This document shows, piece after piece, positions 9,529 through 31,848 of a stretch of 32,000 nt of DNA. The notes below the pieces were generated by a model, which was not told the DNA's origin, made no database searches, and worked only from the letters and a program-made list of their open reading frames with translations. The first letter of the stretch is position 1. Each line of letters opens with the position of its first letter. The translations under genes and the position numbers were made by a program. This stretch comes from Nitrosospira multiformis ATCC 25196 (GTDB lineage Bacteria > Pseudomonadota > Gammaproteobacteria > Burkholderiales > Nitrosomonadaceae). The stretch is from positions 2,760,001-2,792,000 of the forward strand of contig NC_007614.1 of the NCBI RefSeq assembly GCF_000196355.1, read 5' to 3'.

Positions 9529-9615
9529 GCCGGGATGGCGGAATTGGTAGACGCACGGGACTCAAAATCCCGCGACCGCGAGGTCATGGGGGTTCGATTC
9601 CCCCTCCCGGCACCA
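9529..9615 (+). tRNA. tRNA-Leu, anticodon CAA, encoded CCA end
   Basis: Hand-folded cloverleaf. Acceptor GCCGGGA/TCCCGGC, anticodon stem CGGGA/TCCCG with loop CTCAAAA, long variable arm CGACCGCGAGGTCAT, T arm GGGGG-TTCGATT-CCCCC, then A-CCA. Coordinates cross-checked against the frame of the overlapping track ORF 9136..9651. Confidence 0.93.
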
Positions 9616-14109: not shown

Positions 14110-15477
14110 TTAACGCAGCATGAATGTTTCGTAAACCAGCCCATTAAGTCTTTTTGAAACGATGATCATCCCCACCAGGGTCGTTGTTACAACCGACAAG
14201 GCAAAACCGTAGCCATAAAATGCGGGCCCAAGGTATTGACTCAAAAGGGTGAATACAATGTTCGAGGTGACACATAGCAAACAGAGATACAAGGCATCTT
14301 TACGATAATCGAAATAAAATAATATGTTTAGAACAGCCAGCAATAATACTTGAACACCCACCGCAACAAGGTCAATATTTAACAGCATGCTATAGAAAGG
14401 CGATATTCCTACCCATTCAAGCAATTTTTCCCCTACTGCCAGCAATATAATGATGGTCATTCCTTGTACCTTAAAGATTTCAATAAATCCTCTCTGAATT
14501 GTCAGGACCATTTCTTCATAGATTTGTAAGATAGGCTTTAAGGGAGCGCCGCCATTAATAGCTGCATAAAACTTTGTGTACTGTTCTACAAAATCAGTCT
14601 CCATGCGCAGCAAAAATACCGCCATTCCCGGTATGATCGATAAATATGCAAGAAATATTGGAAGGTCATAAATTTGCGAGCCCCGGAGGGGCGAAATGAC
14701 CGCAACGCCGGTTTGAGGATTAAACCAGAAAATAAATTTGTCAACCCAAATAGCGAGGTTATAAAGAAAGCCGGTAATCGCTAGGCTCGGGAATATCTGA
14801 CTTCGCTGTAAAAAATCAAAGGCCATCAACTTATCCCTTGAATACGAGCGAAAAACCACAACCAGGAGCATAAACAATAAAATGGCATGCCCCAAAACAA
14901 AACCGGAAAGCAGTCCTTCCAGCCCAAATGCCTTCATTTCCATAGAAGCCAATACTGTTACGCCATAACCTACCAGAAAGGCTAACAAAACTGCACGGTA
15001 AGCCTTCAGCCCCGATAAAACGATCACTACAATCCAAATGGTAGAAAGGATAACCAGCCCGGCCAGCATCAATAAACGATATAGCACCGATCCGCTAAAC
15101 AGGTAAATCAGGGATAGAGCCGCAATCGTTCCGCTGACAATCACTACAATAAAAATGGCCCCTGTTAGGTTCGGTAAAACCTTTTCGTCCTGTTTTTCAT
15201 ACAACTTGTCAGCAATAAAGCGTGTGATCATCAGTTGCAAGGGACTGGTCAGAATCAAAGAAATCGCCATCAAATAAGTTATGGATATCTGAAACTGCTC
15301 AACATAATAAGGAGCGGTTGAGTTTTCCGTGTTGATGATGCCGATTAAGAGGATGCCAACAATCGACAATACCCATGGGCCAGAACCTATAATCCCCGCA
15401 AAACCATAAGCGAGCGTAAGCCCTGATAGAGTATCAGTGCCTGTCAGTTCACGTAGTCTAAACCCAATACCAGCCAT
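14110..15477 (-). CDS. pelG: PelG-like polytopic inner-membrane exopolysaccharide exporter
   Basis: 455 aa. MAGIGFRLRELTGTDTLSGLTLAYGFAGIIGSGPWVLSI is the characteristic PelG N-terminus. About 12 hydrophobic segments follow. Confidence 0.88.
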   Translation of the reverse strand: MAGIGFRLRELTGTDTLSGLTLAYGFAGIIGSGPWVLSIVGILLIGIINTENSTAPYYVEQFQISITYLMAISLILTSPLQLMITRFIADKLYEKQDEKVLPNLTGAIFIVVIVSGTIAALSLIYLFSGSVLYRLLMLAGLVILSTIWIVVIVLSGLKAYRAVLLAFLVGYGVTVLASMEMKAFGLEGLLSGFVLGHAILLFMLLVVVFRSYSRDKLMAFDFLQRSQIFPSLAITGFLYNLAIWVDKFIFWFNPQTGVAVISPLRGSQIYDLPIFLAYLSIIPGMAVFLLRMETDFVEQYTKFYAAINGGAPLKPILQIYEEMVLTIQRGFIEIFKVQGMTIIILLAVGEKLLEWVGISPFYSMLLNIDLVAVGVQVLLLAVLNILFYFDYRKDALYLCLLCVTSNIVFTLLSQYLGPAFYGYGFALSVVTTTLVGMIIVSKRLNGLVYETFMLR

Positions 15478-15714: not shown

Positions 15715-17229
15715 TTATTGTGCTATCGCTTGGTCATAAATCTTCTTATAGCTGTCGAGCATTCTGGATTGCGTATAATATTTTTCAAATCGCTGAATAC
15801 CCGCTTTCTGTGCTGCATGCCAACGTTCCCCGTCTGTCAGCAATGTAATCACAGCAGCAGCGGTGGCTTCCGGATCCGCGATGGGCGTTACAATACCTGC
15901 GCATCCCAAAGCACGGTCCTCGTCGCTGGCCCCCTCGATGATTTCCCGACACGCACCCACATCGGTCGTCACGACCGGCAAACCGCTGCCAAAAGCTTCG
16001 AGCAGCACCAAAGGAAAGGCTTCGCTGATCGACGTCAGTACAAGCAACCCTAGACGAGGGAGCACGTTGCTGATTTGCTGGAACCCCAGAAAACGTACTT
16101 TTCCTTCCAGTCCCAGCTCCTGAATCAGACTTCTGCATTCCGCCACATATTCCTGATCTTCCTCTTCAGGTCCGATCAGCCAGCCTTGAGCTTCAGGAAG
16201 TTGAAGCACAACCGTACTCATGGCTCTAATAAAGGTTTTAATATCCTTTATCGGCACTATCCTTCCAAGCAATCCGACCACGAGTGGAATCTTTTCTGGC
16301 CGTTCCGCACGTATAGGAAGAAAACGCTGCATTTCCATTCCGTTAGGGATAACCTGAGTGCGGTCACCATCCGCACCATCGGCAATTTGGCGCCTCCTAT
16401 TATTTTCATAAAGGCTAATGATCGGATTTGAGGCTTGATAAATAAGGCGCCCAAGTGATTCAAAATATCTTATCCATAATAATTCCTGATATTGCATTCC
16501 CATATAAAGAGCATCGCTTAACGAATCACGATGTTCTTTAATGAAAAGGGACTGCAAGTCCACCTTTCTTTCCTTCGTATAGATGCCATGCTCCGTCAAA
16601 ATAAGCGGCCGCCCCGTTCTGTAATGCAGTAATATGCCAAGAAAACCTGCAAAGCCGGTCGAAACGGTATGAAATGCTTTCGTCTCAACAGAAAACTGAT
16701 TAGCCACCGAGGCAAGCATAAACAGTGGAGCGTGAGTCGCTTTGATTGCCCACAGGTAATGAATGAATGAATTCCCTGCGTTATATTTGTCGTAATACTC
16801 ACAAATGTGCTGCCAGGACGCATCACTATGGAAAAACTCCTCTGCAGTGAAGCCGGACGGCTGCCCCAAAGAAACCAAAAGGTTCTTTAGGACAACCTCA
16901 TCGAAACCCGAGCATGGATTCCGGAACCACTCATGGAGCTTTCCTGAACGCAGAATGTAGTCATTATTACCTTTGCAGCCCTTGGCTTTAGATAAAGAAA
17001 GACGCTCCCACAGATAGTGGCATTCCAGATGAACGACATTATCGGGCAGAACATATTTCAGTTCGCCATAATCACTCTTCCTGGATCCCAGAAAAACTAA
17101 AGAAAATGTGTACTGCGGCAACTCTGCGATAATCTGGTGCACCCAGCCCGAAACCCCACCCCTGATAAAAGGATAGGTGCCTTCCAGCAAGAGCGTGATA
17201 TCAGCATCTTTCTGTTGCTTCTGCATCAA
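15715..17229 (-). CDS. pelF: PelF-like cytoplasmic GT4 glycosyltransferase
   Basis: 504 aa. It has DITLLLEGTYPFIRGGVSGWVHQII (PelF N-terminal domain) and a C-terminal GT-B fold with the E-x7-E region (SISEAFPLVLLEAFGSGLPVVTTDVG). The stop/start overlaps pelE by 4 nt. Confidence 0.9.
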   Translation of the reverse strand: MMQKQQKDADITLLLEGTYPFIRGGVSGWVHQIIAELPQYTFSLVFLGSRKSDYGELKYVLPDNVVHLECHYLWERLSLSKAKGCKGNNDYILRSGKLHEWFRNPCSGFDEVVLKNLLVSLGQPSGFTAEEFFHSDASWQHICEYYDKYNAGNSFIHYLWAIKATHAPLFMLASVANQFSVETKAFHTVSTGFAGFLGILLHYRTGRPLILTEHGIYTKERKVDLQSLFIKEHRDSLSDALYMGMQYQELLWIRYFESLGRLIYQASNPIISLYENNRRRQIADGADGDRTQVIPNGMEMQRFLPIRAERPEKIPLVVGLLGRIVPIKDIKTFIRAMSTVVLQLPEAQGWLIGPEEEDQEYVAECRSLIQELGLEGKVRFLGFQQISNVLPRLGLLVLTSISEAFPLVLLEAFGSGLPVVTTDVGACREIIEGASDEDRALGCAGIVTPIADPEATAAAVITLLTDGERWHAAQKAGIQRFEKYYTQSRMLDSYKKIYDQAIAQ

Positions 17230-18245
17230 CCCTCTTTCTGCCAGAACCGTGCTGCGGTAGTCAAAAGGGGATAAGCTGCGGGAAGTTCTATCCCCGTCAT
17301 TAATTGTTTCACTTCATGATAATGGCGGGTATAAAAGGCTATCTCTGCGTAATAGGTCAGTAAGCCGACACACTCAATTCCGAAAATCTCGGCCTTTTTA
17401 AATTGTTCCAGGGCCTGCTGGTATTTTCCCAACTTCAGCAAAATTTGAGCATACTGGAAAATGAGCCCGGAATCCTGGGGAGAGTATCCGAGACCCATTT
17501 CAATGTATTTGTAGGCCATTCGGAGAACATGGTTTTTAGCTTCACCTTGGACCAGTCCGAGATGCGCCAATTCCCAATAGTCGTTTGCAATCTGCCGGCA
17601 CAATTGTTTTTTCTTTCTGGGGTTTTCTATATTTTCAAGATCCTGCTTGGATTTCTCGATGTGCTTGCTCAATCTGTACTCTTTACGATCTAATAAGGCA
17701 TAAGCAAGCAATCTGATATCGTCAATCGAGTCGGCCAGCGCTAAACGCAACAATGGTATTGCGTCCCTATCCTTAAGTTTCAATGTTGCGTACACAGCTT
17801 GCAGCCGTATTTCAGGATTTCTGGATCTGTATAGATCGTACAGGCTATGGGAGTTGACGGGCTGACCCCCTGTCACGCCAGCGTCAGAAGGAAGATCCCG
17901 AATCTTGTTTATGTTTATACACAAATTTGCGCTTTTTGGTTTTTTGGACGAAAAACCTACAAATGATAGAGCCAGAATCAGTCCTATCAATCCGAGGACA
18001 GGCAAATAAAAAACTATCACGAAGAAAAAAAGAGTTGCTCTGAGCGAAGTGTCTGCTTGGCCAGGAACAACAACCGTGGGAAAAATATAGGCGGCAACAG
18101 CGCTTGCAATAAAATGACAAAACAAGGCTGTGATCAGATTCTGCTCGGCTATGGAGGGACTGAAAAACAGTTGAAGACCATATATTTCAAGCCCTACGGC
18201 CATACCGAGTAGAATTAACTTAGACAGAATTATGAATATAGGCAT
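17226..18245 (-). CDS. pelE: PelE-like inner-membrane TPR protein
   Basis: 339 aa. N-terminal TM helices are followed by TPR-like helical repeats (LKLGKYQQALEQFKKAEIFG...). The position between pelD and pelF and the length fit PelE. Confidence 0.8.
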   Translation of the reverse strand: MPIFIILSKLILLGMAVGLEIYGLQLFFSPSIAEQNLITALFCHFIASAVAAYIFPTVVVPGQADTSLRATLFFFVIVFYLPVLGLIGLILALSFVGFSSKKPKSANLCININKIRDLPSDAGVTGGQPVNSHSLYDLYRSRNPEIRLQAVYATLKLKDRDAIPLLRLALADSIDDIRLLAYALLDRKEYRLSKHIEKSKQDLENIENPRKKKQLCRQIANDYWELAHLGLVQGEAKNHVLRMAYKYIEMGLGYSPQDSGLIFQYAQILLKLGKYQQALEQFKKAEIFGIECVGLLTYYAEIAFYTRHYHEVKQLMTGIELPAAYPLLTTAARFWQKEG

Positions 18246-19624
18246 TCTGACTCCCTGAATTCTTTGTAAATAAATTCGTTCTTACAAAACCGCTCTATCT
18301 CCAGTAAAACCTCTTCCGACGAGGTTTTGTTGTGTAAAATCCACATACAAACTCTGATATTGTCATCGCGAAAGCTGAAGGCTGTTCTATCGGGGCCCTC
18401 ACAAATCGCGTCCGCTGATGGCCTTGACAGCTCAATCCGATTTAAGAATTCATTAGCGCCAGTTACGTCCGTAGAAGGTAATAATATTAAAAACAGGGAG
18501 CGGTCATCTCTATCTTTGGCAATAAGAATTTCATCTACGCCCCGTAATTCGCTCTGAAACTTAACGAGAAATTCCCTCTGCAGTTCTTCAGTGTTGATAG
18601 TGACGGCAATTGCGACAGCAGTTGTCTTTAAGTATTTCAGTTCCCCGAGAATTCGGCGCAGCCGCGCTTCAAACGCTTTTCTACCATCATTGTCCTGAGA
18701 ATAAGATTCCGCTCGCCGTTTGATAAGATCCCCTATTTTTCCTCCCAAAACGGCGAGAAAATCCATAGTAGCTTCCTGAAATGCAAACAACGGCATTTCA
18801 CTCACAACGACCATCCCCCAGATTTTCTGATATACGTCCACTAACGGGATGGCCACAAGGGCTCCAGTGGCAGGCGCTGAATCGTTTCTTTCCACTTCAA
18901 TACTTGCAACATGGCCAGTACTGAGCGCTTCTCTTATTACAGAATCTGAGCTCGATAACGTGCGAGGCTGTCCTAAACGCGCAACAGGGTTAACATTGAT
19001 GTTTCGTTGTTCGTCTACTGCATAAATCCCCGCTGTCTGAACATTGGCATAGCTGGCAAGAATTTTAAGAATATCCTCCGAAATACCGGCTAGTGGCTCG
19101 CCCCTATTTTCTTCCAGAGACAAAATTTTCTTCTTCAGATCAAGTAAGGATAAACGCAAGCTTTTGGCCTGGCTTGCCAAATGCTGTTCCAATTGATAAT
19201 GAGAGCCTTTAATCAAATGGTATGAGCGGGCAAACTTGTCCATCCTTACCTTGAGATAATTGTATTGATGTTCTAAAAGCCGTATCTTACGGACCCATGA
19301 TTCACGAAACTCAGCCGTAATCACAGTGAGCAGCAACAACCCCGTAACCATTTCCTTAGGAAAAAAAGGAACTTGCGGCAATCTTAGAAAGAACCCAATG
19401 GAAATGACACTTATGAGCAATGCCGCGGAAGCAATTCCGCATGCGAACCCGTATTGAAGACCAATCAACAAAGGAGCAAGAATCAGCCAGGGAAACCGAT
19501 AGTCGACGAAAAAAGGATCAGACGGATCAACAGCATAACCAATTATTGGGAGCGACAATGAGACCGCGATTGATTCCAGCCATTTGTTTTGTAAAACGTT
19601 ACCCGGCATCATCGACTTTTCCAT
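18230..19624 (-). CDS. pelD: PelD-like c-di-GMP receptor (4 TM + GAF + degenerate GGDEF)
   Basis: 464 aa. Four N-terminal TM segments, then a central GAF-like region. The I-site RGVD (residues 361-364) lies exactly 5 residues before a degenerate GGDEF position reading KDRDD (370-374). This is the arrangement expected of PelD. Confidence 0.85.
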   Translation of the reverse strand: MEKSMMPGNVLQNKWLESIAVSLSLPIIGYAVDPSDPFFVDYRFPWLILAPLLIGLQYGFACGIASAALLISVISIGFFLRLPQVPFFPKEMVTGLLLLTVITAEFRESWVRKIRLLEHQYNYLKVRMDKFARSYHLIKGSHYQLEQHLASQAKSLRLSLLDLKKKILSLEENRGEPLAGISEDILKILASYANVQTAGIYAVDEQRNINVNPVARLGQPRTLSSSDSVIREALSTGHVASIEVERNDSAPATGALVAIPLVDVYQKIWGMVVVSEMPLFAFQEATMDFLAVLGGKIGDLIKRRAESYSQDNDGRKAFEARLRRILGELKYLKTTAVAIAVTINTEELQREFLVKFQSELRGVDEILIAKDRDDRSLFLILLPSTDVTGANEFLNRIELSRPSADAICEGPDRTAFSFRDDNIRVCMWILHNKTSSEEVLLEIERFCKNEFIYKEFRESECLYS

Positions 19625-19636
19625 TCGTCATGGAAA

Positions 19637-20206
19637 TCACGTTCCCGTGATTTCGATCCTTGAAGTCAACTCTCTAAGCAATTTTTGTGCGGTGCCACTG
19701 AGCGATCCTGTACTCCAACCTGATCGCGCTCCACTTGCAGACCAAACGACTTTGCCAGAAGGAATCTCTATAACCCGTATCGTCAGGCCCACAACCGGCT
19801 CGCTGCCAACCCCCAGTTTGTATTGCCATTCATCAACGCTTCCGGCAACCACATAAGAAACATCATCCTTAATAGCGGACACCAATGCTTTTTCCTGGCG
19901 TGTCCGGTCATCGAATTCAAGCCACCCCCTCTTGTCTGCATCCGACTGTTGGTACATTTCTATATTTGTAATCCCTCTGATTCTGAGGAATGTGGCCAGC
20001 ATTTCTTCCACTTGCTCGCCTACCCGCGGAGTCTGTGAATAATTTTGAAAAGGCAAAATCATCCAACGCTCGGAAGGAGAAAGTGAGGGACCTTTCTGTA
20101 TGTCAATTACTGAACAGGCAGTCAAAGAATTGAACAAAATAATAAAAACGAAAAATCTAAGTTTTGTATTAACAAAGCCCATGATTTTTTTGTTACTGAT
20201 AAACAT
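19637..20206 (-). CDS. pelC: PelC-like outer-membrane lipoprotein
   Basis: 189 aa. Lipobox FNSLTA-C at residues 26-31, AAGAGG SD 9 nt upstream, and a position immediately upstream of pelD. The start could instead be the internal Met9. Confidence 0.8.
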   Translation of the reverse strand: MFISNKKIMGFVNTKLRFFVFIILFNSLTACSVIDIQKGPSLSPSERWMILPFQNYSQTPRVGEQVEEMLATFLRIRGITNIEMYQQSDADKRGWLEFDDRTRQEKALVSAIKDDVSYVVAGSVDEWQYKLGVGSEPVVGLTIRVIEIPSGKVVWSASGARSGWSTGSLSGTAQKLLRELTSRIEITGT

Positions 20207-20315
20207 AAACGAGACCTCTTTTTCTAATTAATTAATGGTCACTTTCTTATAGATTTGGTCCTATACAAGCGATGCAAAGCGACGTATTGCGACCGCTAAC
20301 TTGTCTAGCCTATTA

Positions 20316-20452
20316 GAGAGAGCGCCTGCTCTCTCAACCGTTCCGGAACGGGTTACCGCCAGTTTTCCAGCCCTGACAATGGGTACCGCTTTGAGTAGAT
20401 CCATATTACAAAGACTTCTGGAGCTCGCTATGTGCGCTATTTCACATAGCGA
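20316..20452. other. Cluster of perfect hairpins/palindromes in the long pelC upstream region
   Basis: GAGAGAGC-gcct-GCTCTCTC (20316..20335). The near-palindrome AACCGTTCCGGAACGGGTT (20336..20354) with a perfect 12-nt core CGTTCCGGAACG. A 10-bp stem TCGCTATGTG-N8-CACATAGCGA (20425..20452). All lie inside the mutually overlapping track ORFs 20261..20485(-) and 20301..20570(+), which I do not believe are genes. Confidence 0.5.
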
Positions 20453-20627
20453 AATCTTATTTCCTACAGCAATGCACGCTCCCACCAGAAAGGTGTATAG
20501 CTATTCCCGCATGTTTACGAATAACGGGCGGGATTGGAGCGTGATTTTCTGTATCTTGAATATCCTTTAGTACCATCAATTGAATGATGGCCGTCCTCGC
20601 TTTCTGCTGTGGGAATTGAAGAAAGCA

Positions 20628-21008
20628 AAGGTGGAGCTGCCGTTAAGGTCCTGAACTACAAATCATACGAACGTTAAACCTTGCTTCCGCATTAGGAATT
20701 AGTGGACCGGCTCGATCGAACCTGAGGATGCACTGATGTAGGGGGATAGGTAGATTGAATCGGAACTGAGGGGAGCAGGAACAAGATGCGCCCCGCATTT
20801 CGCGATTGGCGGCCTGTTCGGGGAAGGGCGCGAGACGCGAGGCAGGGCTGGTTCGGCGCGAGTTCCGGGCGGGAATATCCGCATGCGAAGGGGTTGCCGC
20901 TCAAGCCAGGTAGGTGGGATGGAATGAAATCAAACGCCGCTGGCAACCACAGACGGCGTTCCGGAAACCCACCTGCTTCTAAACCGATGTGATGAAGGTG
21001 GGAGCTGC
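20628..21008. other. GC-rich, ORF-poor, helix-rich element flanked by imperfect direct repeats AAGGTG(G)GAGCTGC. It may be a structured ncRNA or a small non-autonomous insertion; its identity is unknown.
   Basis: Direct repeats at 20628..20640 and 20995..21008. Nested complementary pairs: CGGAACT 20761..20767 with AGTTCCG 20861..20867, AGGTGGG 20912..20918 with CCCACCT 20968..20974, and AACGCCG 20933..20939 with CGGCGTT 20954..20960. Only Arg/Pro/Gly-rich overlapping ORFs occur here. Confidence 0.45.
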
Positions 21009-21032
21009 TGTCCTTTTCGAGGGGCGGCAGCT
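21003..21032 (-). terminator. 11-bp stem-loop 13 nt downstream of the GH114 gene stop; there is no adjacent U-tract in the present sequence
   Basis: AGCTGCTGTCC-ttttcgag-GGGCGGCAGCT (two G-U pairs). On the minus strand a T-rich run (ccacctttgctttcttc) would follow the hairpin only if the 20641..21008 element were removed. Confidence 0.35.
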
Positions 21033-21044
21033 ACGTTGGTGTGA

Positions 21045-22493
21045 CTATCTGCAGGATTCCCTCCAGGCATCCAGAGACAGGTTTTTCTTTAGAAAATCGA
21101 AATTCAATGTATTTGCTTGCGGGCAAAAGCTTGAATTCGCGAGATTGTATTCGATACCGAATACAGCTTTTCCGGCATCAACAAATGGTTTGAGTGTATC
21201 GCATTCGCTGTACTGGAAGCATTCTTCATTCACGGCAAAGTCGAAATAATTCACAAGATCCTTGATTTGGTCGAGATTATTTTTCAAACCTATAGCAAGC
21301 CCAAGTTCATGTGCCGCTTCAGCAAGGGCTACGTTATAAGTCAACTGATCGTTGTAGCTGAGGACAAATCCCGTATTGTTGCTGTAGCCGTCAACGTTGT
21401 CTGGATCGACGCCATCGCAGCCTTTCTGCGCGGCCTGTTCCATCCGCGCCCGCATGATGGGAATGAGAATATCCAATTTTCTTATGTCCAGCCATTTCTC
21501 ACCTGCCCAGCCGTCAAGATTCCGGCCGAGAACCACGATTGGAAATGAGGCAGCATCAGGACGCCAGTTTTCATGGCTCCCCGCACTAAAATAACAAATA
21601 ACTCGCTTGCCTGTTGATCTCAGTGCCGAGATAACCGCTGCACTTGTATCAAACAAATCGAGATTATAAACGTCGACACCGAGCGATGTATTAATCGTAC
21701 CAGTGTACTGAATTTGCCACTTTGATCCAGGGGCAGGTTGCCAGCGGTTTCCATCGTTTACAACGGTGGGCGGCTGGCTGCTAGCTGCATCATTGCTTGA
21801 CCCTAGGGTATCTGTAGATGGATCGGATACCGCACTTTTTACTTCCAACCCAATGAAATCAAGTTGGCTATTGTTTCCTCCATTCCTTGTCACGTAGCGT
21901 AACGTTATCTGATTCCGGCTGTTAATAAATTGGGATGGTTCTATTATCGTTGTGAGGATATCACTCCAGAATCCATCTTTTACATTGCCATTGTCTGCAA
22001 TATGGGCCCACTTGCCAGTTTTAACATTAAGTAATTGAAATTCCCACTTTTGAAGAGACTTTTCTCGCCCACGGTAATTTGCATGGAATATTAATTGCTG
22101 AATCGTTTTATCAGGTTTAGCTGGCAGATTGAACCGAAAAATTCCCACATATCCCAGTTGATCGGTAGCAAATTCTATATAGCTGTCCGAATTATCGTCC
22201 GAGCTCTGCTGATCTTTTACAGCGAGAACTTCCAGGGGCTGGGGCGTCGATGAACCTCTTTTATTTAATAAGCTAGATGGAAAAATGAACTCGGCGAAGC
22301 TCACATTCGCACTTAGAAGAGTAATGCCAACAAGCAGCTTAATTACGCTTTTTACTTGTCTGAGGGACTTGATCAAAGAAATATTCGCACTTAGAAGAGT
22401 AATGCCAACAAGCAGCTTAATTACGCTTTTTACTTGTCTGAGGGACTTGATCAAAGAAATATTAGAAATTGTATTTGTTGCGGTTTCCGACAT
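21045..22493 (-). CDS. Secreted or anchored GH114-family endo-alpha-1,4-polygalactosaminidase-like protein (Ega3-like) with an N-terminal beta-sandwich-like domain
   Basis: 482 aa with GAGGAA SD 8 nt upstream. The C-terminal ~230 aa carry GH114 (Pfam Glyco_hydro_114) hallmark strings: RVICYFSAGSHENWRPD, WLDIR, QKGCDGVDPDNVDGY, GLAIGLKNN and AVNEECFQYSEC. A Ser/Thr/Pro linker precedes the domain. The N-terminal signal-anchor is tandemly duplicated. Confidence 0.8.
   Translation of the reverse strand: MSETATNTISNISLIKSLRQVKSVIKLLVGITLLSANISLIKSLRQVKSVIKLLVGITLLSANVSFAEFIFPSSLLNKRGSSTPQPLEVLAVKDQQSSDDNSDSYIEFATDQLGYVGIFRFNLPAKPDKTIQQLIFHANYRGREKSLQKWEFQLLNVKTGKWAHIADNGNVKDGFWSDILTTIIEPSQFINSRNQITLRYVTRNGGNNSQLDFIGLEVKSAVSDPSTDTLGSSNDAASSQPPTVVNDGNRWQPAPGSKWQIQYTGTINTSLGVDVYNLDLFDTSAAVISALRSTGKRVICYFSAGSHENWRPDAASFPIVVLGRNLDGWAGEKWLDIRKLDILIPIMRARMEQAAQKGCDGVDPDNVDGYSNNTGFVLSYNDQLTYNVALAEAAHELGLAIGLKNNLDQIKDLVNYFDFAVNEECFQYSECDTLKPFVDAGKAVFGIEYNLANSSFCPQANTLNFDFLKKNLSLDAWRESCR
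22305..22463 (-). repeat. Perfect 78-bp tandem duplication (2 copies + 3 nt) inside the 5' end of the GH114 gene
   Basis: 22305..22382 is identical to 22383..22460. At protein level NISLIKSLRQVKSVIKLLVGITLLSA occurs twice back to back (residues 11-36 and 37-62). No mismatch was seen. Confidence 0.95.
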
Positions 22494-22509
22494 TGTATTG
22501 TTTTCCTCA

Positions 22510-22544
22510 ATTGGAATTTATGAAGCTATTGGAATTTATAAAGC
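22510..22544 (-). promoter_or_regulatory. Two 17-nt direct repeats at 18-bp period in the GH114 5' region
   Basis: ATTGGAATTTATGAAGC (22510..22526) and ATTGGAATTTATAAAGC (22528..22544), 16/17 identical, lying 17-51 nt upstream of the ATG at 22493. Function unknown; they could be a direct-repeat regulator site or 5'-UTR element. Confidence 0.3.
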
Positions 22545-22924
22545 CAAATAGAGTTAATAATTTGGTCCGGGAGTAACGGTAAGGTGACTCGGAGTTCGAA
22601 GCCGGAGCCATAAACGCCGCCTCCAGATCCGAGGTCCATTCCTGATGGAAATATCTCGTTGACAGCGCCTTGCAAACGCATGCGGTTCTTATACCGAGAG
22701 AAATCGTGCCGCTGTCTTTCACTACTGTGACTAGCTCGCGGTTCGCTGTCGTTGCACTATCCCCCTCCTTGGCGATTCTACGGATTTTACGTTATCCCTT
22801 CCGCACCGATGAGATTCGTTTTCGGGTGAGAACTACTCCGGAAGCTGAAGGAGGAAGTAAGCAATTAGCAACGAGATTCAGGCGCTCGATGGAAAAAGTG
22901 GGTGAACGCGTGTCATATAGCCCT

Positions 22925-22962
22925 TTAAGCCAATTAAGCCATCTTTTTTGCCGTTTTAGCCA
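22925..22962 (+). promoter_or_regulatory. Three phased copies of T(T/A)AGCCA(A/T) followed by an A7/T7 tract upstream of the 711-aa gene
   Basis: TTAAGCCA at 22925..22932 and 22934..22941, and TTTAGCCA at 22955..22962. These are followed by ttaaaaaaattttttta, 120-155 nt upstream of ATG 23081. Candidate operator/UP region only. Confidence 0.25.
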
Positions 22963-23080
22963 TTTAAAAAAATTTTTTTACCTTATCCCAATATCCCAGC
23001 GATTTTGTATACCCCGGTCTATGCTGGACTAGGGAATCCCCCATTTTTTTGTCTTCGTTTACGAAAAGGAGATTTCATTC

Positions 23081-25216
23081 ATGAAAGAGAACTTGAGTCT
23101 GAAACGCTCGTTACTTGTCTCGGTGATAATGGGGCTGGCTTTAATTGGGGCATCGCCGGCATTTGCCGATAATGCTGTCAAATTGAGGATATTGCTCATT
23201 ACGACAGGCGATATAACGACAGACCCTGTATTTGCTTATATCAAGCCCGTCCTTGACGAAATGGGCGTGCAATACGATGTATTCAATGCCAACACGCAGG
23301 ATTTAACGGCAGCAATGCTCGCCTCTTCTTCAACCGGAGCCGTCTGCAAAGCTCAGGATGCCGGGTGCATAGGTAGTTACAATGGCATTATCTTGACCGA
23401 CTCTGACTTGGTCCCAGCCTTCACGCCTTCCGAATGGGATATCCTTCATGACTACCAGAAAAACTTCGGGGTCCGCGAGGCAGTGCTATCGGGGTGGCCG
23501 GCTACTTATTCGGACCCGGGACCTCCTTCTGGCATCTACCTGGATTACGGGCTTGTCTATTCATCCAGTGGAAACAACTACGAGGGTACGTGGAGCGTGC
23601 CCACCACAGCCAGCAAGGAAATTTTTGAGTATGTGAACCAGGCTAATCCACTTCCAATTACGGACTTTGCCTTCGCCGCCAATCCTCGAAATGATGGTAC
23701 CGCTATGCGGGATGGGACCGTAGCCACTGTTGAGCCCCTCCTCAAAACCCAGAATGGCGAAGCGCTGGTATCGGTCGTGCGGTACATGATGCCGAACCAG
23801 GCTACACCCGCACGCGAAGTCATGATCTCGACCATTACGAATGCTTCATTTCTCATCCACTCAAAAGTTCTGGCCTATGAGTTCGTCAACTGGGCGACGC
23901 AAGGGGTCTTCGTTGGGAAGCGCTATGTCCATATGGCAGCCCACGTGGACGATTTGTTTCTGAGCAACAGCCTGTGGGATTCCGAACTCAAGAATGATCA
24001 TCCTACCAATACCTATAGGTTAAACAGCGGCGATATTGCCAATGCAGTGAGCCAGCAGAACGCCTTTCGTGCCGCTCATCCGACAGCCGGGGCCTTCAAG
24101 CTGGATTTTGCCTTCAACGGTTCCGGGGCAGTGGTAGATCCGGAAGCAATGACATTGGCTCCAAATCTGACGGAAGACCTGGTAGCGGCAGTGGTGGCTA
24201 ATAAAGCACAATTCCGCTTCATCAACCACACCTTTACACATGCCGACATGGATAAGGCGCCGGTTCCGGCTAATGCTCCCTGTGATTATGAAACCTTTAC
24301 TACCATCGCGGCAATCAAGGCGGAAATTACCAAGAACCGGAAGGTCTGGGATCTTCTGACGCTTCCCGAGAGGAGCCAGAACAATCGGGTGCTCGTGAGC
24401 GGCAATCACTCCGGCTTGAAAGACCGCAAATGCACTGCGGATCCTGCCTTGCATCCGGAGATGTTCGACGTTCAATCGGATGACGTGGCATTTGACGAGG
24501 GTGGCGCCAATCCACTATTCCTCCAAGCCGTCGCTGACCTGGGCGTGGACTATCTTGCCTCGGACTCATCGCAAAAGGGCCAGAACCTCGAGCAATATAT
24601 CACTCAGTACGACGATGGCAGCAATACGGACCGGGTCATGCTGCCGCGCTGGCCCACCAGCGTTTTCTATAATGTAACGAACCCAGCTCTGCTGGTGGAT
24701 GAGTACAACTATATATTTCATGATAGGTTTGTAAAGGCCGGGCAGAATCCATGCGAAATACCGGGAGCCATCTGCACTCCCCGTAATTACGCGGAAATTC
24801 TACTGGCAGAGGCAGATACTGCATCACGCCACATGCTGATGTTCAACAAATGGCCTCATTTTTTCCATCAGACGAACGTGGCCAAATACGATGCAAGCGG
24901 CAGTACGCTCCAGTTTGACTGGTTGAGCGCCGTTTTCGCCCAGTACGAGCGGCTTTTCAAGCTACCGGTCAGAAATTATCCCTTTTATCTTATTGGGGAC
25001 AATACTGAAGAAGGTCTCAAAGCCAAAGCTGCGGCGATTCAAGCAGTGTGGAATCGCGCGACCAATCAGGTCACCCTGTCAGCAAACGTAGCCGTACCCC
25101 TTCTTTTTGTCACGGGTATCTCCGGCGGGGAACTATACGGCGGTCAGTTTATCCGTCGCATTAACATAACCACAACGCCCGCATCGTATGGGGTCAATCG
25201 GGGACTTACTCAATGA
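23081..25216 (+). CDS. Secreted metal-dependent polysaccharide deacetylase-like protein (CE4-superfamily motif order; possibly Agd3/CE18-like)
   Basis: 711 aa with AAGGAG SD 9 nt upstream and signal peptide ...LIGASPAFA/DN. Motifs occur in CE4 order: AAHVDD (residues 286-291, Asp-Asp), NHTFTH (382-387, H-T-x-x-H), LPRWP (521-525, RxP) and WPHFFHQ (591-597). The large N-terminal non-catalytic region matches the multidomain layout of fungal Agd3. The family assignment is inference. Confidence 0.6.
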   Translation: MKENLSLKRSLLVSVIMGLALIGASPAFADNAVKLRILLITTGDITTDPVFAYIKPVLDEMGVQYDVFNANTQDLTAAMLASSSTGAVCKAQDAGCIGSYNGIILTDSDLVPAFTPSEWDILHDYQKNFGVREAVLSGWPATYSDPGPPSGIYLDYGLVYSSSGNNYEGTWSVPTTASKEIFEYVNQANPLPITDFAFAANPRNDGTAMRDGTVATVEPLLKTQNGEALVSVVRYMMPNQATPAREVMISTITNASFLIHSKVLAYEFVNWATQGVFVGKRYVHMAAHVDDLFLSNSLWDSELKNDHPTNTYRLNSGDIANAVSQQNAFRAAHPTAGAFKLDFAFNGSGAVVDPEAMTLAPNLTEDLVAAVVANKAQFRFINHTFTHADMDKAPVPANAPCDYETFTTIAAIKAEITKNRKVWDLLTLPERSQNNRVLVSGNHSGLKDRKCTADPALHPEMFDVQSDDVAFDEGGANPLFLQAVADLGVDYLASDSSQKGQNLEQYITQYDDGSNTDRVMLPRWPTSVFYNVTNPALLVDEYNYIFHDRFVKAGQNPCEIPGAICTPRNYAEILLAEADTASRHMLMFNKWPHFFHQTNVAKYDASGSTLQFDWLSAVFAQYERLFKLPVRNYPFYLIGDNTEEGLKAKAAAIQAVWNRATNQVTLSANVAVPLLFVTGISGGELYGGQFIRRINITTTPASYGVNRGLTQ

Positions 25217-25273
25217 GTATCCACTACTCCGAGAAATTTTTTCGGTAAAGATTAAATTAAGAGGATTTTCAAA

Positions 25274-25693
25274 ATGGTGAACTATATACATTCGGTTAGA
25301 ACTGTCCTTACCTTGCTGATTTTTGCCATTATCGTTTCGATTGGCTTGGGAACTACAGGGTCAGCACATGCAGTTCCAGACGAGGCTATAGGGAAAATTG
25401 GAAAGGCACTTAACCAGATCAATAAAGCGACTAGAATTGAGATACTGAAGAGGAATGACTATAAGTTAAAGGCGCGAGAACCGCATTACTCCGAGCAGGC
25501 CGCATCCCTGGCACAGCAATACAGAGAGACCGCCGAGTTAGTTGCACGTCAAGGCGGCGACACCCAGGCGCTTCTTGCCGCAGCTGCTTATTTCGAGGGC
25601 GAATCACAACTTATTTCGAGGGTTGGGCCGCTGGATCGCTTTCTGCCAAATGATAGTGCTTCTGTGAAGCACAATCACAGCTCCGCTAAATGA
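25274..25693 (+). CDS. Small secreted helical protein of unknown function, co-oriented with and 58 nt downstream of the deacetylase-like gene
   Basis: 139 aa with AAGAGGA SD and signal peptide ...GLGTTGSAHA/VP. The mature part is predicted helical (AASLAQQYRETAELVARQGGDTQALLAAAAYFEGE). A strong terminator follows. Confidence 0.6.
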   Translation: MVNYIHSVRTVLTLLIFAIIVSIGLGTTGSAHAVPDEAIGKIGKALNQINKATRIEILKRNDYKLKAREPHYSEQAASLAQQYRETAELVARQGGDTQALLAAAAYFEGESQLISRVGPLDRFLPNDSASVKHNHSSAK

Positions 25694-25705
25694 GAACGTG
25701 GAGTG

Positions 25706-25730
25706 CCCCCGGTGAAGCGGGGGTTTTTAT
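25706..25730 (+). terminator. Rho-independent terminator
   Basis: CCCCCG-gtgaag-CGGGGG followed by TTTTTATT, 13 nt after the stop at 25693. Confidence 0.8.
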
Positions 25731-25747
25731 TAACCTATGGGAGATCA

Positions 25748-25856
25748 ATCTTCTGGCGCTTCCCGAGAGGAGCCAGAACAATCGGGTGCTCGTGAGCGGC
25801 AATCACTCCGGGCAGTACGCTCCAGTTTGACTGGTTGAGCGTCGTTTTCGCCCAGT
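25748..25856 (+). pseudogene. Two-piece relic copy of the 711-aa deacetylase-like gene
   Basis: 25748..25811 matches 24351..24414 (64 nt, 1 mismatch). It is joined directly to 25812..25856, which matches 24900..24944 (1 mismatch). The relic therefore lacks about 485 bp that separate the two segments in the intact gene. The junction lies in a 1-nt G microhomology. Confidence 0.85.
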
Positions 25857-25926: not shown

Positions 25927-28900
25927 TCAGAAGCGAATGGAGTATTGGAGGCCGGCCCCCGCATAAGCCTGATTAGTCCTGCCGCCTTGGACATTGCTAT
26001 AAAAAACGCTGGCGCTAAGAATATCCGATCCCATTAACGATATCCCCATCAATACACGCGCGTTATACCCTAGATCATTAGCAGGCCACACCCATCCTGT
26101 CCACGCATCCCCAAGAACGAAGGGGCGTCGCAGCACTCCCTGATCAAACGGCCCATAGCGAAAACTCGTCCCCATGCCCATGAGAGCAAATCTCCGTGGG
26201 ATCAGCGTCTCCACACCCGGCAAGGAAGGGCTCAATACCCCAGTTAAGTCAGAAGGAGTCGTCTGTGTAAGGTCGTTTCTTTCCAATGATCCCTGAAGTC
26301 TGATTTGCCAATCCTGAATGCCTCTAAGCAAAGAGTGGCCCAGAATCGTTTGCACCTTATAGCCTTTACCCAGGTTATTTCCTTCCCTGGTGGAATAGCG
26401 ATGACCATCGATATCTACATGGAGGAATGTTTGCGGTGTTAATTGAGTAGTCACCCCCAGTAAAAGCATATCTTTTTTCCCTAGCGCTCGTAACGCCCCT
26501 GTTTCGTGGCTTAGTTCATTCACTCCTATACGCAAGCTGGTTTTTAATCTGCTTGTTACATCCTGGTTAACCCTGACTGCCCCGTAAGCAATGGAATCCA
26601 CTTCTCTCAAGTTGCCACCGACATTCACCTGGTATGCCCCTTGCCCCAGAGGATGCTTAAATTCCGCCATTATGTCTACTTCATTATGTGCAGGCAGAAC
26701 AATCTCCGGATTTGAAGAATCCAGATAGGTGTGCCTTACTTCCGCTGCCAGCACCCCACCTGAACCAGGCATATTAAAACGCGCTCGGCTTTCGATAAAA
26801 TTTATACGTCCAAGCGTCTTGAAGTCAACGCCTCCTGTTACTTGCTTGCTTGATTTTACTATCAGATCATCCCTGACACTGAAGAGGTAAGATTGCAGTG
26901 CAGGGTCTCCTTTATGTGAATCAAGAAGTTTATAGGTAAATGACAACGCCTCCTCGTTTCTCTCCAGACGCCTGAGCGTCTCCATTCTGTTGAAGTTCGA
27001 AAGCCTGTCATTTTCGCTTTCAAGAATATGCTCGGCAGCAGCGAGATCATTTTCCCCCAGAGCTAAAGCAAGGCGCTGCCACGCTGGTGTTTCCTGTCTT
27101 GCAACATGCTCTTGCAATAACCAGTAACGAGCAGCCGGATAATTCTCCTGAGATAGGTATGCAGCGACCAGCAATTCTTGAACTCCAGCATTGTCGTATC
27201 CTTTGGCCAGAAATTTTTTTAATATAGATACATCAGCATTCACGCCTTCCATGTCGCGCATCAAAGCCAGATATTCCGGACGTAACCACTCCTTAATCTT
27301 CCTGGCTGAAACCGCATTACCAATTTCCTTGAGACGTGATCTTAAGTTAAACAGGACGTATTTACGCAGACGCCACGCTCCATCCCTATACCCAGCCCTG
27401 TTCATGACATCAGCATAGCTGAGCAGCCAGAGATAATCATCAGGATTGATCCGCGCCTTGCGCTCAAACCAGGGCAGAGCTTCCTGGTTCTGGCCAACCT
27501 TGACCAATGCGGTTCCATAAACGCCCCATAAAGACCGGTTTTTTGAGGCATCGGCTTGCCAGGTTTTAATATAGGACCGGAGTAACCGCTTATCACCTCG
27601 GCCAATGAGATTCCATAAAATTCCTTCCTTTGCGGTAGTCGATGCCGGACTGACTTTTAAAGCTTGCTGATACTGCTTTAAAGCTATTTCAGGTTTGCTC
27701 TCCCGGGTATTCAACTCCGCGCGCAGGAGCCAGTACATCTCTGAGTCCAGAAACTGCGACTCCTTACTCATTGCCACTTTAAAAAGCCGCCTTAGTTCAT
27801 CTGACAAACCTGCCTGATTAGCAACATCCATAGCAAGCAGCAACCAACGAGGCTGTTTGAGACGATCATAAGCTTCTTCACCGATCGCGATGGATTCTTC
27901 TGCCCTGCCCATATCTCGCATCAACTGAATCAACCGTTCCGCAACAAGCGCATTGGCATTTTCTGATTTCCACAGAATGCCATAAGCCGTCACCCCATGC
28001 TCCAATCGTTTCAGGTCCCACGAAAGCTCCCCTAAAATCTCCCAGAAATACGTCTCATTTGAGGTCACATTATTTTTATTTGATAACAGTATAGAAAGAG
28101 CCTTCTCGGGTTTGCCGTTTTTCCGCGTTAATCTGGCTTGATGAGCCACCGCCTCTGGCATGCGATTGAAACGTGCCCCGATAAGTTGCCACGTCGTCAC
28201 GGCATCAGTTAATTGTTCTGCACTTTCCTGTGTTTTAGCCAACGCTTCCCATCCCTGTGAATCCTCAGGATACCGCTTTAAATAGGATTTCAGAAAATTG
28301 ACGTGATCAGCTAAGCTTCCCGCCTCCTTGTAGGCAGATAACAAGGTGTTCATTTCCTCGCTTGTTAATTTCCGTGTGTTTGATAACTGTGTCAGCAGTT
28401 CCAAAGCAGCATCGTAAGCTTTTAGCCCTACCGAAAGCCGAACCGCATTCATGATGGCCGCATCATCTTTCCTATTTCTTGCCAGCCATAACCATTCCTT
28501 CAATGCGATCTCTGGCATCAAAGCCCATTCTGCAATACGTCCCACCCTTTCATGAGCGCTTTCATCGGCTGGAACAATCTCAACCACCCGCTGAGCTAAA
28601 ACCAAAGCCGGCCGGATTTCCCCAACCGCAAGAGCACGATCGAGCTGCTTTTTAATTTGCACAGGATCGTTAGCCTCCAGCGCTAGCCGCAGTATGCCCA
28701 TTTCATATGCACGCCTCGGCTCGTTGTCAGCCAGATTAATACTGATAACCTCATCTACCAGTTCAGGATCTTGTGGAAATTTCTGCTGATAGTTACGGAA
28801 ATATTCGAGAGCGAGCTTACTATCGCCCGTCTCCCGCAATGCTTGAAGGGTTAGAATTGCAAACTGCCGGGCCTGGGATGCGTCCTTCGACATCTCATGG

Positions 28901-29499
28901 CATTTGTTATATATTTCCGCCGCCTTGCGGGGCATTTCTGATGCGATATACCACCTCGCCGATTCTTTTAATTTCTCCAGGCGTTCAGAAGAATCACGGA
29001 CCACGGCTGACCAGCGATAATACAGGCCTGCAACGACAGCAGGTTGCTCAAGTTCCAGGCTAAGTTTAATAACTTTAGGCAACAAAGTAACTGGAAGCCG
29101 CTCCTTACTGATCTCAACAATACTGTTCCGCAGGCTGGCTAATTTTGCTTTCCGACCTGGATCGTTTTCCGCTGTGGATAAATAATCCTTGAAGCCAATT
29201 TCCAATACCAATAGCCTGACACCTAACTCTGCCGGTTCTTTTAGCAACGGCTCCAACACAATACGAGCTTCATCCAGTTGGCCGAGGTTCATATAGTGCC
29301 GTGCGAGCTCGATGCGCAAGCTTCTATCATCAGGGTTTATATTTAACAGAAGCCTTAAATACTGTACTGAAAGATAGTCCGGCTTCTGTGTTAATAATTC
29401 TTTTAACTGATCCTCTTTATAAAACAAAAGAGCAAAAATAACGGTCAGCCCCAAAATGAACAGCGATATTGTTTTTTTCAAACTACCAAACAAATTCAT
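25927..29499 (-). CDS. pelB: PelB-like TPR scaffold plus C-terminal outer-membrane beta-barrel porin
   Basis: 1190 aa with AAGGAA SD 7 nt upstream. One N-terminal TM/signal segment, about 900 aa of TPR-like repeats, and a C-terminal region of alternating beta-strand pattern ending ...GAGLQYSIRF (terminal Phe, OMP signature). Length and architecture match PelB. Confidence 0.88.
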   Translation of the reverse strand: MNLFGSLKKTISLFILGLTVIFALLFYKEDQLKELLTQKPDYLSVQYLRLLLNINPDDRSLRIELARHYMNLGQLDEARIVLEPLLKEPAELGVRLLVLEIGFKDYLSTAENDPGRKAKLASLRNSIVEISKERLPVTLLPKVIKLSLELEQPAVVAGLYYRWSAVVRDSSERLEKLKESARWYIASEMPRKAAEIYNKCHEMSKDASQARQFAILTLQALRETGDSKLALEYFRNYQQKFPQDPELVDEVISINLADNEPRRAYEMGILRLALEANDPVQIKKQLDRALAVGEIRPALVLAQRVVEIVPADESAHERVGRIAEWALMPEIALKEWLWLARNRKDDAAIMNAVRLSVGLKAYDAALELLTQLSNTRKLTSEEMNTLLSAYKEAGSLADHVNFLKSYLKRYPEDSQGWEALAKTQESAEQLTDAVTTWQLIGARFNRMPEAVAHQARLTRKNGKPEKALSILLSNKNNVTSNETYFWEILGELSWDLKRLEHGVTAYGILWKSENANALVAERLIQLMRDMGRAEESIAIGEEAYDRLKQPRWLLLAMDVANQAGLSDELRRLFKVAMSKESQFLDSEMYWLLRAELNTRESKPEIALKQYQQALKVSPASTTAKEGILWNLIGRGDKRLLRSYIKTWQADASKNRSLWGVYGTALVKVGQNQEALPWFERKARINPDDYLWLLSYADVMNRAGYRDGAWRLRKYVLFNLRSRLKEIGNAVSARKIKEWLRPEYLALMRDMEGVNADVSILKKFLAKGYDNAGVQELLVAAYLSQENYPAARYWLLQEHVARQETPAWQRLALALGENDLAAAEHILESENDRLSNFNRMETLRRLERNEEALSFTYKLLDSHKGDPALQSYLFSVRDDLIVKSSKQVTGGVDFKTLGRINFIESRARFNMPGSGGVLAAEVRHTYLDSSNPEIVLPAHNEVDIMAEFKHPLGQGAYQVNVGGNLREVDSIAYGAVRVNQDVTSRLKTSLRIGVNELSHETGALRALGKKDMLLLGVTTQLTPQTFLHVDIDGHRYSTREGNNLGKGYKVQTILGHSLLRGIQDWQIRLQGSLERNDLTQTTPSDLTGVLSPSLPGVETLIPRRFALMGMGTSFRYGPFDQGVLRRPFVLGDAWTGWVWPANDLGYNARVLMGISLMGSDILSASVFYSNVQGGRTNQAYAGAGLQYSIRF

Positions 29500-31772: not shown

Positions 31773-31848
31773 TGGTAGCGAATCCCAGATTCGAACTGGG
31801 GACCAACGGATTATGATTCCGCTGCTCTAACCACTGAGCTAATTCGCC
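31773..31848 (-). tRNA. tRNA with anticodon CAT (Met by anticodon; sequence looks more like lysidine-modified tRNA-Ile2)
   Basis: The reverse complement is GGCGAAT-TA-GCTCAGTGGTTAGAGC-A-GCGGA-ATCATAA-TCCGT-TGGTC-CCCAG-TTCGAAT-CTGGG-ATTCGCT-A-CCA. The D arm and variable region (TTAGCTCAGTGGTTAGAGCAG...TCATAAT...TTGGTC) closely follow E. coli ileX rather than metT or initiator tRNA. Confidence 0.85.

Follow-up and report, generated by a model that had tools for sequence, protein, structure and literature searches.

The 32,000-nucleotide stretch of Nitrosospira multiformis ATCC 25196 DNA analyzed here (NC_007614.1, positions 2,760,001 to 2,792,000; hereafter the window) carries a pel locus in which pelB and pelC are separated by three additional genes. 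These encode an Agd3-like polysaccharide de-N-acetylase, a small secreted protein of 139 residues that we call s139, and a GH114 hydrolase. Agd3 and Ega3, the fungal counterparts of the deacetylase and the hydrolase, are enzymes of galactosaminogalactan (GAG), while Pel is a partly de-N-acetylated polymer of alpha-1,4-linked N-acetylgalactosamine (GalNAc). This chemical logic had been laid out in a preliminary description of the locus, and it stands. We think it likely, without being certain, that the three genes add a second layer of tailoring to the Pel-like alpha-1,4-GalNAc polymer that the cell itself makes. The locus itself is already known. Bamford et al. 2020 (Nat Commun, PMC7229062) looked for homologues of Agd3 in bacteria, found their co-occurrence with GH114 'highly consistent', and reported that Gram-negative agd3 operons hold homologues of Pel machinery and outer-membrane components. 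Their Supplementary Data 2 lists N. multiformis, under the paralogue WP_011381729.1, as 'B - 3gdA - GH114, C, D, E, F, G, A', where reversed text ('3gdA') denotes the opposite strand. The preliminary description had taken the combination to lie outside the described pel system, a claim that this exact listing overturns. The remaining interest is in the biochemistry and in the s139 partner.

The 711-residue product of the Agd3-like gene is 100% identical to a protein of the ATCC 25196 genome. It matches the Pfam family Agd3_CE (PF25115) with 60.9 bits, above the cut-off of 27.6, and its sole sequence match in the PDB is Agd3 (6NWZ). A match to the CBM87 family stays below the cut-off (18.9 versus 27.6 bits). 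The protein contains the motifs DD (residues 290-291), HTFTH (383-387) and PRWP (522-525). Its residues D290, D291, H383, H387, R523 and H596 correspond to D377, D378, H510, H514, R613 and H668 of Agd3, and the motifs CM1-CM4 are all present. In Agd3 the six residues are essential by mutagenesis: D377 is the base, D378, H510 and H514 bind the metal, R613 coordinates the base, and H668 is the acid (Bamford et al. 2020, PMC7229062). In an alignment of 36 homologues extending down to 27% identity, D290, D291, H383 and H596 are invariant, R523 is nearly so, and H387 is a histidine in 28 of the 36. The AlphaFold2 model built from this alignment has a mean predicted local distance difference test score (pLDDT) of 90.8 and a predicted template-modelling score (pTM) of 0.90. 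When it was compared with the PDB by Foldseek, Agd3 6NWZ came first over the full length (E 2.4e-34, template-modelling scores (TM) of 0.69/0.73, 781 alignment columns), with the deacetylase domain of human NDST1 next. Like 6NWZ, the model consists of an N-terminal CBM87-type domain, a CE barrel and a C-terminal beta domain. Membership of CE4 (NodB) was rejected, as PF01522 gave no match and the 92 residues between DD and HxxxH are an Agd3-like, not a CE4-like, spacing. The preliminary description had recognized a metal-dependent deacetylase and left its class between CE4 and Agd3. The deacetylase identity was borne out by the family match, the fold and the six residues, the Asp-His-His site (D291, H383, H387) among them, and the class turned out to be CE18 instead of CE4. 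From sequence and model together, the protein is a predicted metal-dependent deacetylase of the CE18/Agd3 type with an intact Asp/His/His site. Orthologues are 72-79% identical over the full length, and the wider family comprises 1,066 clusters at 50% identity (E <= 0.001); NCBI calls close relatives 'Agd3-related carbohydrate deacetylase'. The ATG is preceded by an AAGGAG ribosome-binding site that is conserved among relatives.

The 482-residue hydrolase matches GH114_assoc (PF14741, 1e-40) and Glyco_hydro_114 (PF03537, 1.4e-86; 289.9 bits against a cut-off of 27). Its catalytic domain aligns with A. fumigatus Ega3 (PDB 6OJ1) over 245 residues at 46% identity (E 2.6e-60). The counterparts of Ega3 D189 and E247, a catalytic pair verified experimentally (PMC12054363), are kept within the motifs VDPDNVD and VNE(E/Q)C, the latter reading VNEEC in the window protein. 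The protein is thus, as far as its sequence predicts, an Ega3-type GH114, and the earlier identification holds. A 2025 paper on GH114 and GH191 states that bacterial GH114 enzymes 'remain elusive', none having yet been made in soluble form for study (PMC12054363). None of the GH114, Agd3-like and 139-residue proteins has a match in NCBIfam. For neighbouring genes, the distances to the fungal proteins are unequal: the GH114 protein is 46% identical to Ega3, the deacetylase only about 16% to Agd3. This contrast is relevant to the proposal that the GAG cluster passed from bacterium to fungus.

The genomic neighbourhoods of the deacetylase relatives, whose survey had been proposed from the start, link the family to Pel. 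We examined 68 loci, found with 12 closer sequences and cited below by L numbers, and mapped the pel proteins of the window onto them by tblastn. Locus counts refer to the 54 loci that are at least 12 kb long, with flanks fetched up to 10 kb. Overall, at least two Pel-specific genes lie within 10 kb in 20 of the 54 Agd3-like loci, and GH114 is found in 16. The locus of one Nitrosospira metagenome-assembled genome (MAG; L003) has exactly the architecture of the window, while Nitrosovibrio tenuis (L001) and two further MAGs (L002, L012) show the order …pelF-pelG-pelA-pelB / s139, Agd3-like / GH114. Since pelB, s139, Agd3-like and GH114 are kept together in all four, with pelCDEFGA on either side, it is this four-gene unit that is conserved. 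The preliminary description had pictured an insert at the junction of pelB and pelC. There are indeed 5,720 bp between the end of pelB at 25927 and the start of the pelC-like gene at 20206, but a simple insertion falls short as a picture, because the genes travel with pelB in relatives. In L004, pelB is accompanied by two Agd3-like copies with s139, and GH114 is not within the short contig. Globally, pelB adjoins the Agd3-like unit in L001-L004, L012, L022, L030, L032 and L046.

Several arrangements concern the place of pelA. In Methylococcales (L022, L030, L032, L046), Agd3-like and s139 genes stand directly 5' of pelBCDEFG, which is the canonical pelA slot. A hydrolase-only PelA lies beside Agd3-like and s139 genes in Nitrosomonas (L015, L023) and Hahellaceae (L063), and in Moritella the Agd3-like and GH114 genes adjoin pelGFEDC. 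Full-length, His-bearing PelA occurs together with an Agd3-like gene in the gammaproteobacterial loci L055, L057, L060 and L062. Read as sequence evidence, these arrangements speak for an Agd3-like enzyme that works on a Pel-type polymer and is able to replace the PelA deacetylase. Agd3-like/s139 units often occur in tandem (L002, L004, L008, L010, L012), with some frameshifted copies. As a separate observation, the Nitrosomonas communis group (L008, L010, L024, L042) has an extra short gene encoding only the PelA hydrolase, just upstream of full-length pelA. With GH114 and two Agd3-like/s139 units, this makes three galactosaminidase-type hydrolases and three deacetylases.

The same synteny bears on whether the enzymes instead serve competition or amino-sugar foraging by acting on a foreign matrix, either fungal GAG or foreign Pel. 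All three proteins carry signal peptides, and the GH114 protein resembles fungal Ega3 unusually closely. GAG-producing fungi occur in the same soil habitats as Nitrosospira, and Ega3-type enzymes are known from the general literature to disrupt foreign Pel and GAG biofilms. However, a deacetylase matures a polymer and is not a degradative weapon, the module has no genes for galactosamine (GalN) uptake or catabolism, and N. multiformis is a chemolithoautotroph. The tight, conserved linkage to pelB and the position of Agd3-like genes in the pelA slot across several orders also speak against this account, which we regard as quite improbable. Among the uses suggested in the preliminary description, a tool against neighbours' matrices thus finds no support in synteny.

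The second gene of the module, s139, has a signal peptide, in line with the secreted protein first described there, followed by a variable charged linker and a helical core. The conserved part of the core reads …RKKIRKxNDxKLKxxxPxYxxQAKSLAxQYxETAxIVARQGGDPQPLLDAAAYFE…. s139 has no match in Pfam, and a profile search returned only 20 related proteins, all unannotated. A homologue lies directly 3' of the Agd3-like gene in 26 of the 54 loci, in beta- and gammaproteobacteria, whether or not pel genes are close by. The reverse search from s139 led back to an Agd3_CE gene in L070, and in L071/L072 the s139 homologue stands beside the last 40 codons of a deleted Agd3-like gene whose intact pair is present in the syntenic L070. 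L071/L072, of Methylococcales-type context, are also a case of recent deacetylase loss in their own right. Fusion of the two proteins has occurred at least twice. In two natural cases, P0023 (N. briensis, 822 residues) and P0101 (799 residues), the s139 core is attached to the C-terminus of the deacetylase, the s139 signal peptide is gone, and the linkers are unrelated. In the AlphaFold2 model of P0023, which was built on a thinner alignment, the core forms three helices (730-746, 751-771, 777-790) with block-mean pLDDT of 87-93. Adjacency and independent fusions therefore point to a likely partnership, physical or functional, between s139 and the Agd3-like deacetylase, as judged from sequence. 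Most likely s139 is an accessory or adaptor subunit that attaches to the deacetylase. The partnership and the fusions are apparently unreported, as we found no description of them in the literature. We go further only tentatively, in a proposal that may well fail: s139 would be a dedicated subunit of Agd3-type enzymes, for example for docking to Pel export or for processivity, and the pair would form with GH114 a second tier, differing from PelA in its biochemistry, that writes and cuts highly deacetylated GalN blocks. As far as found, this two-tier division of labour with s139 has no earlier description in the literature.

PelA is present at full length and matches P. thermotolerans PelA (PtPelA, PDB 9CGY) with E 3.3e-177 over residues 43-938, which agrees with the early recognition of a hydrolase-deacetylase in the same locus. 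It keeps the motifs IDGDG, HSYSH, SEHVYTN and HYHFYSG, and it retains the essential PtPelA and P. aeruginosa PelA (PaPelA) residues D528, D530, H600 and H604, plus E723 and H761. At the position of PaPelA H526 it has Gln522. Activation of the catalytic base of CE21 is a proposed, not a proven, role of H526, and no H526/H515 mutant was found in PMC12022489. Glutamine, within VQ[IV]DGDG, is present in every Nitrosomonadaceae PelA examined (the window, L001, L002, L004, L008, L010, L012, L024 and L042), and gammaproteobacterial PelAs beside Agd3-like genes keep the histidine (SHIDGDG). On this lineage-wide sequence correlation, Gln522 could reflect an attenuated PelA deacetylase compensated by the Agd3-like enzyme.

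A stronger version of this idea is that a replacement is in progress. The Nitrosomonadaceae PelA deacetylase would be weakened, the Agd3-like enzyme would be the main or only effective Pel deacetylase, and PelA would persist as a hydrolase and PelB-binding scaffold. Besides the glutamine, this is consistent with the six loci in which an Agd3-like gene accompanies a hydrolase-type PelA or no visible PelA (L015, L023, L063, L022, L030, L032), and with the absence of 'A' from the published Burkholderia and Polaromonas listings (PMC7229062). Nevertheless, H526 has no more than a proposed role, PelA retains its metal triad, base and acid, and the four gammaproteobacterial loci named above pair an Agd3-like gene with a His-bearing full PelA; the missing pelA of some loci may also just reflect the 10-kb flank limit. 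We consider a replacement unlikely but worth keeping in view, and it is a variant of the second-layer model, not exclusive of it.

For the second tailoring layer, we infer a substrate, a cellular location and a division of labour with PelA from the gene identities, catalytic residues, fold, synteny and fusions described above. An alpha-1,4-GalNAc polymer would be synthesized and translocated by PelF, PelD, PelE and PelG. From this polymer the Agd3-like enzyme, probably with s139, would strip N-acetyl groups in the periplasm or after export and thereby produce cationic GalN stretches. Its chemistry would rely on D290 as the base, oriented by R523, on D291, H383 and H387 as metal ligands, and on H596 as the acid. 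GH114 would cleave inside GalN-rich stretches, as Ega3 acts on deacetylated regions of GAG (PMC7229062), and would in this way trim or release the polymer. PelA would add its canonical GalNAc-directed hydrolase, an endo-alpha-1,4-N-acetylgalactosaminidase (PMC12022489), and the CE21 deacetylase. Since Ega3 prefers GalN and the PelA hydrolase GalNAc, the two hydrolases are, by analogy, probably complementary in specificity and not redundant.

Several observations weigh against the second-layer model and need to be considered together. All PelA residues proven essential by mutagenesis are kept, so that the need for an extra deacetylase is not obvious. In the GH114 gene, the segment for the signal peptide is doubled by an exact 78-nt repeat, and this may impair export or alter topology in the N. 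multiformis strain. GH114 orthologues have a single copy of the segment; an assembly artefact was ruled out, as two assemblies of ATCC 25196 encode the same 482-residue product. Promoter matches are at chance level. In the literature, we found neither experimental work on any bacterial Agd3-like member or the N. multiformis pel locus nor expression data for this locus. Finally, 33 of the 54 loci have no Pel-specific gene within 10 kb, and the N. multiformis genome itself contains a 66%-identical Agd3-like paralogue outside any pel context, of the type seen in L014, L017, L020 and L034. The Agd3-like family is therefore not restricted to Pel.

This last point opens the question of whether the Agd3-like/s139 pair modifies a polymer other than Pel, its position in the pel locus being due to shared regulation or hitch-hiking. 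The N. multiformis paralogue (P0095-type), like many Nitrosospira and Methylococcales loci, consists of Agd3-like and s139 only, and L070 lies among genes of one-carbon metabolism. On the other hand, stand-alone copies could act on Pel in trans, and the repeated co-occurrence with GH114 and the placement in the pelA slot point to a GalNAc/GalN polymer. The only characterized substrates of the fold are alpha-1,4-GalNAc polymers and N-acetylglucosamine of the heparosan type. On balance, a non-Pel substrate is improbable.

Small rearrangements within the module raise the further possibility that it is decaying and non-functional in this strain. Between the hairpin that follows s139 and the stop codon of pelB lies a ghost of the Agd3-like gene, made of copies of 24351-24414 and 24899-24944. 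In relatives, this place is often taken by a second Agd3-like copy in tandem (e.g., L004). The 98% identity of the ghost to its source points to a recent event and is too high for a relic of an old tandem paralogue, which in relatives is about 70% identical. The ghost and the doubled GH114 signal peptide would fit decay, as would the frameshifted Agd3-like copies of L002, L012 and L046, the near-complete deletion in L071/L072, and the lack of conservation in the spacer at 20207-21044. By contrast, the three open reading frames (ORFs) are intact, the catalytic residues are kept, the ribosome-binding site is strong and conserved, and full-length orthologues exist at the identities given above. 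Decay of the module thus appears scarcely credible.

The whole cluster is laid out as pelB / s139, Agd3-like (opposite strand) / GH114 / pelC D E F G A, and its features are listed in Table 1. Every coordinate and motif given in the preliminary description was recovered in the window. The interval between pelB and pelC is filled by the GH114 gene, a divergent spacer of 587 bp, and the 711- and 139-residue genes, with pelB convergent to s139. Homologues of PelA, B, D, E, F and G are all present, as recognized by Pfam or, for PelA, by PDB 9CGY. The pelC-like product had no match to a PelC-specific model and only a weak FlgO match in Pfam (0.005), and tblastn finds its relatives in the pelC position of related loci. 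The gene is the one labelled 'C' in Supplementary Data 2 of Bamford et al. 2020 (PMC7229062). The order differs from the canonical single-operon order pelABCDEFG, with pelA after pelG and not before pelB. With pelB split from pelC by a 5.7-kb module of mixed strand, a single operon is excluded. The gain of the pel locus and the rearrangement of pelA in N. multiformis are also illustrated by Bundalovic-Torma et al. 2020 (PMC7112194, Fig 5ii). In a GC profile across 10000-31700, the G+C content of the whole pel cluster is 0.41-0.53, versus 0.51-0.60 in the housekeeping flank with queA, tgt and secD, and the cluster is flanked by tRNA-Leu(CAA) and tRNA-Met genes (9529-9615 and 31773-31848). The low G+C and the tRNA-gene borders are suggestive of an acquired island.

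Table 1. Positions of the genes and other features of the N. multiformis pel locus within the window
Feature	Position	Strand	Basis
pelA, 939 aa, hydrolase + CE21 deacetylase, moved to the cluster end	10980..13799	-	PDB 9CGY match
pelG	14110..15477	-	Pfam PelG 1.9e-153
pelF, GT4 glycosyltransferase	15715..17229	-	Pfam DUF3492 2.4e-94, Glycos_transf_1
pelE, TPR-like	17226..18245	-	Pfam ANAPC3/TPR matches and synteny
pelD, GAF domain + degenerate GGDEF, cyclic di-GMP receptor	18230..19624	-	Pfam GAF_3, PelD_GGDEF
pelC-like lipoprotein gene, 189 aa	19637..20206	-	LTAC lipobox, position, size
GH114-pelC spacer, 838 bp	20207..21044	.	ORF lists
GH114 endo-alpha-1,4-galactosaminidase homologue, 482 aa, signal peptide + GH114_assoc + GH114 TIM barrel	21045..22493	-	Pfam, PDB
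Exact 2 x 78-nt tandem duplication in the GH114 gene, doubling 26 aa of the signal-peptide segment	22305..22460	-	Repeat search, 100% identity
Divergent intergenic region GH114 / Agd3-like, 587 bp	22494..23080	.	ORF coordinates
Predicted Agd3-like (CE18-type) polysaccharide de-N-acetylase, 711 aa, Sec signal peptide (…SPAFA/DNAV)	23081..25216	+	Pfam, PDB, AlphaFold2
s139, 139 aa, signal peptide (…GSAHA/VPDE), variable charged linker, ~55-aa helical core	25274..25693	+	ORF, homologue alignment
Terminator-like GC hairpin + T-run, 12 nt after the s139 stop	25705..25724	+	Consensus pattern match only
Agd3-like gene ghost, 109 nt, two joined pieces	25748..25856	+	Repeat families, 98% identity
pelB, 1190 aa, TPR + C-terminal PelB beta-barrel	25927..29499	-	Pfam TPR_15 1.8e-93, B-barrel_PelB_C 3.9e-87

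The non-coding parts of the module gave few signals. When the 587-bp divergent region was compared with the regions upstream of Agd3-like genes in relatives, only the part with the ribosome-binding site and ATG was conserved, which left no candidate operator. Within the 838 bp that separate GH114 from pelC there is no ORF of at least 100 residues, and the GC skew of this spacer is opposite to that of its neighbours. Aligned with the equal-sized spacer of the syntenic L003, it gave scattered identical columns without convincing similarity, and a conserved element was therefore rejected. A structured RNA was likewise dismissed as an account of this ORF-poor spacer: at gathering thresholds Rfam found only the two tRNAs in the whole window, and nothing appeared within 20100-23200 at E up to 1. 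The spacer presumably holds the pelC promoter, though no recognizable one was found in it. The consensus scan for promoters and terminators was at chance overall, with 14 found versus 12.2 and 11.7 expected. Its sole convincing result was the hairpin 3' of s139, which has seven pairs, six of them G-C, and the tail TTTTATT.

Several known systems resemble the locus or its parts. The 711-residue protein shares with A. fumigatus Agd3 (6NWZ, CE18 + CBM87; PF25115 family) the full-length three-domain fold at TM of about 0.7 and CM1-CM4, and its gene adjoins GH114, much as fungal agd3 and ega3 are neighbours. It differs in its 16% identity in the structural alignment, in the sub-threshold CBM87 match, in being a bacterial, Sec-secreted protein inside a synthase-dependent pel cluster, and in having the s139 partner, for which we found no description of a fungal counterpart. 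The GH114 protein resembles A. fumigatus Ega3 (6OJ1/6OJB) across the catalytic barrel, including the D189 and E247 counterparts, and differs by the extra N-terminal GH114_assoc domain and the duplicated signal peptide. The P. aeruginosa pelABCDEFG operon, whose PelA is a GH166 hydrolase and CE21 deacetylase, has counterparts of all seven products here, with a candidate for PelC and a full-length PelA. Unlike it, the N. multiformis locus has pelA after pelG, splits pelB from pelC, adds two tailoring enzymes and s139, and has Gln at the H526 position of PelA. A further parallel is PelA_DA of Bacillus cereus, a functional stand-alone Pel de-N-acetylase with an Agd3-like three-domain layout (PMC13254593). 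Both are separate proteins, ours a predicted Pel deacetylase, with a CBM-like, a CE and a beta domain. By contrast, PelA_DA falls outside CE4, CE18 and CE21, comes from a Gram-positive bacterium and is the sole deacetylase of its operon, whereas N. multiformis also has PelA. Among published clusters, the locus belongs to the Agd3 pel-like clusters of Bamford et al. 2020, who list related arrangements in Nitrosomonas communis, Polaromonas, Burkholderia and Stigmatella (PMC7229062). That listing is silent on the s139 gene and its fusions, on the ghost copy and on the His-to-Gln change in PelA.

The chemistry of Pel is related to that of fungal GAG: both are cationic and glue biofilms together, and the enzymes that tailor them are under study as tools against biofilms. 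In N. multiformis the bacterial tailoring system (PelA) and the 'fungal-type' one (Agd3, Ega3) coexist naturally. The locus could therefore show whether the two are redundant, complementary or replacing one another, and it is relevant to the proposal that the fungal GAG cluster originated in bacteria. The s139 protein and the His-to-Gln change in PelA provide concrete, testable leads. If the two-tier tailoring distinct from PelA is true, Nitrosomonadaceae would make a Pel variant with a different charge pattern. N. multiformis is also of interest for the biofilms of ammonia oxidizers in soil and wastewater.

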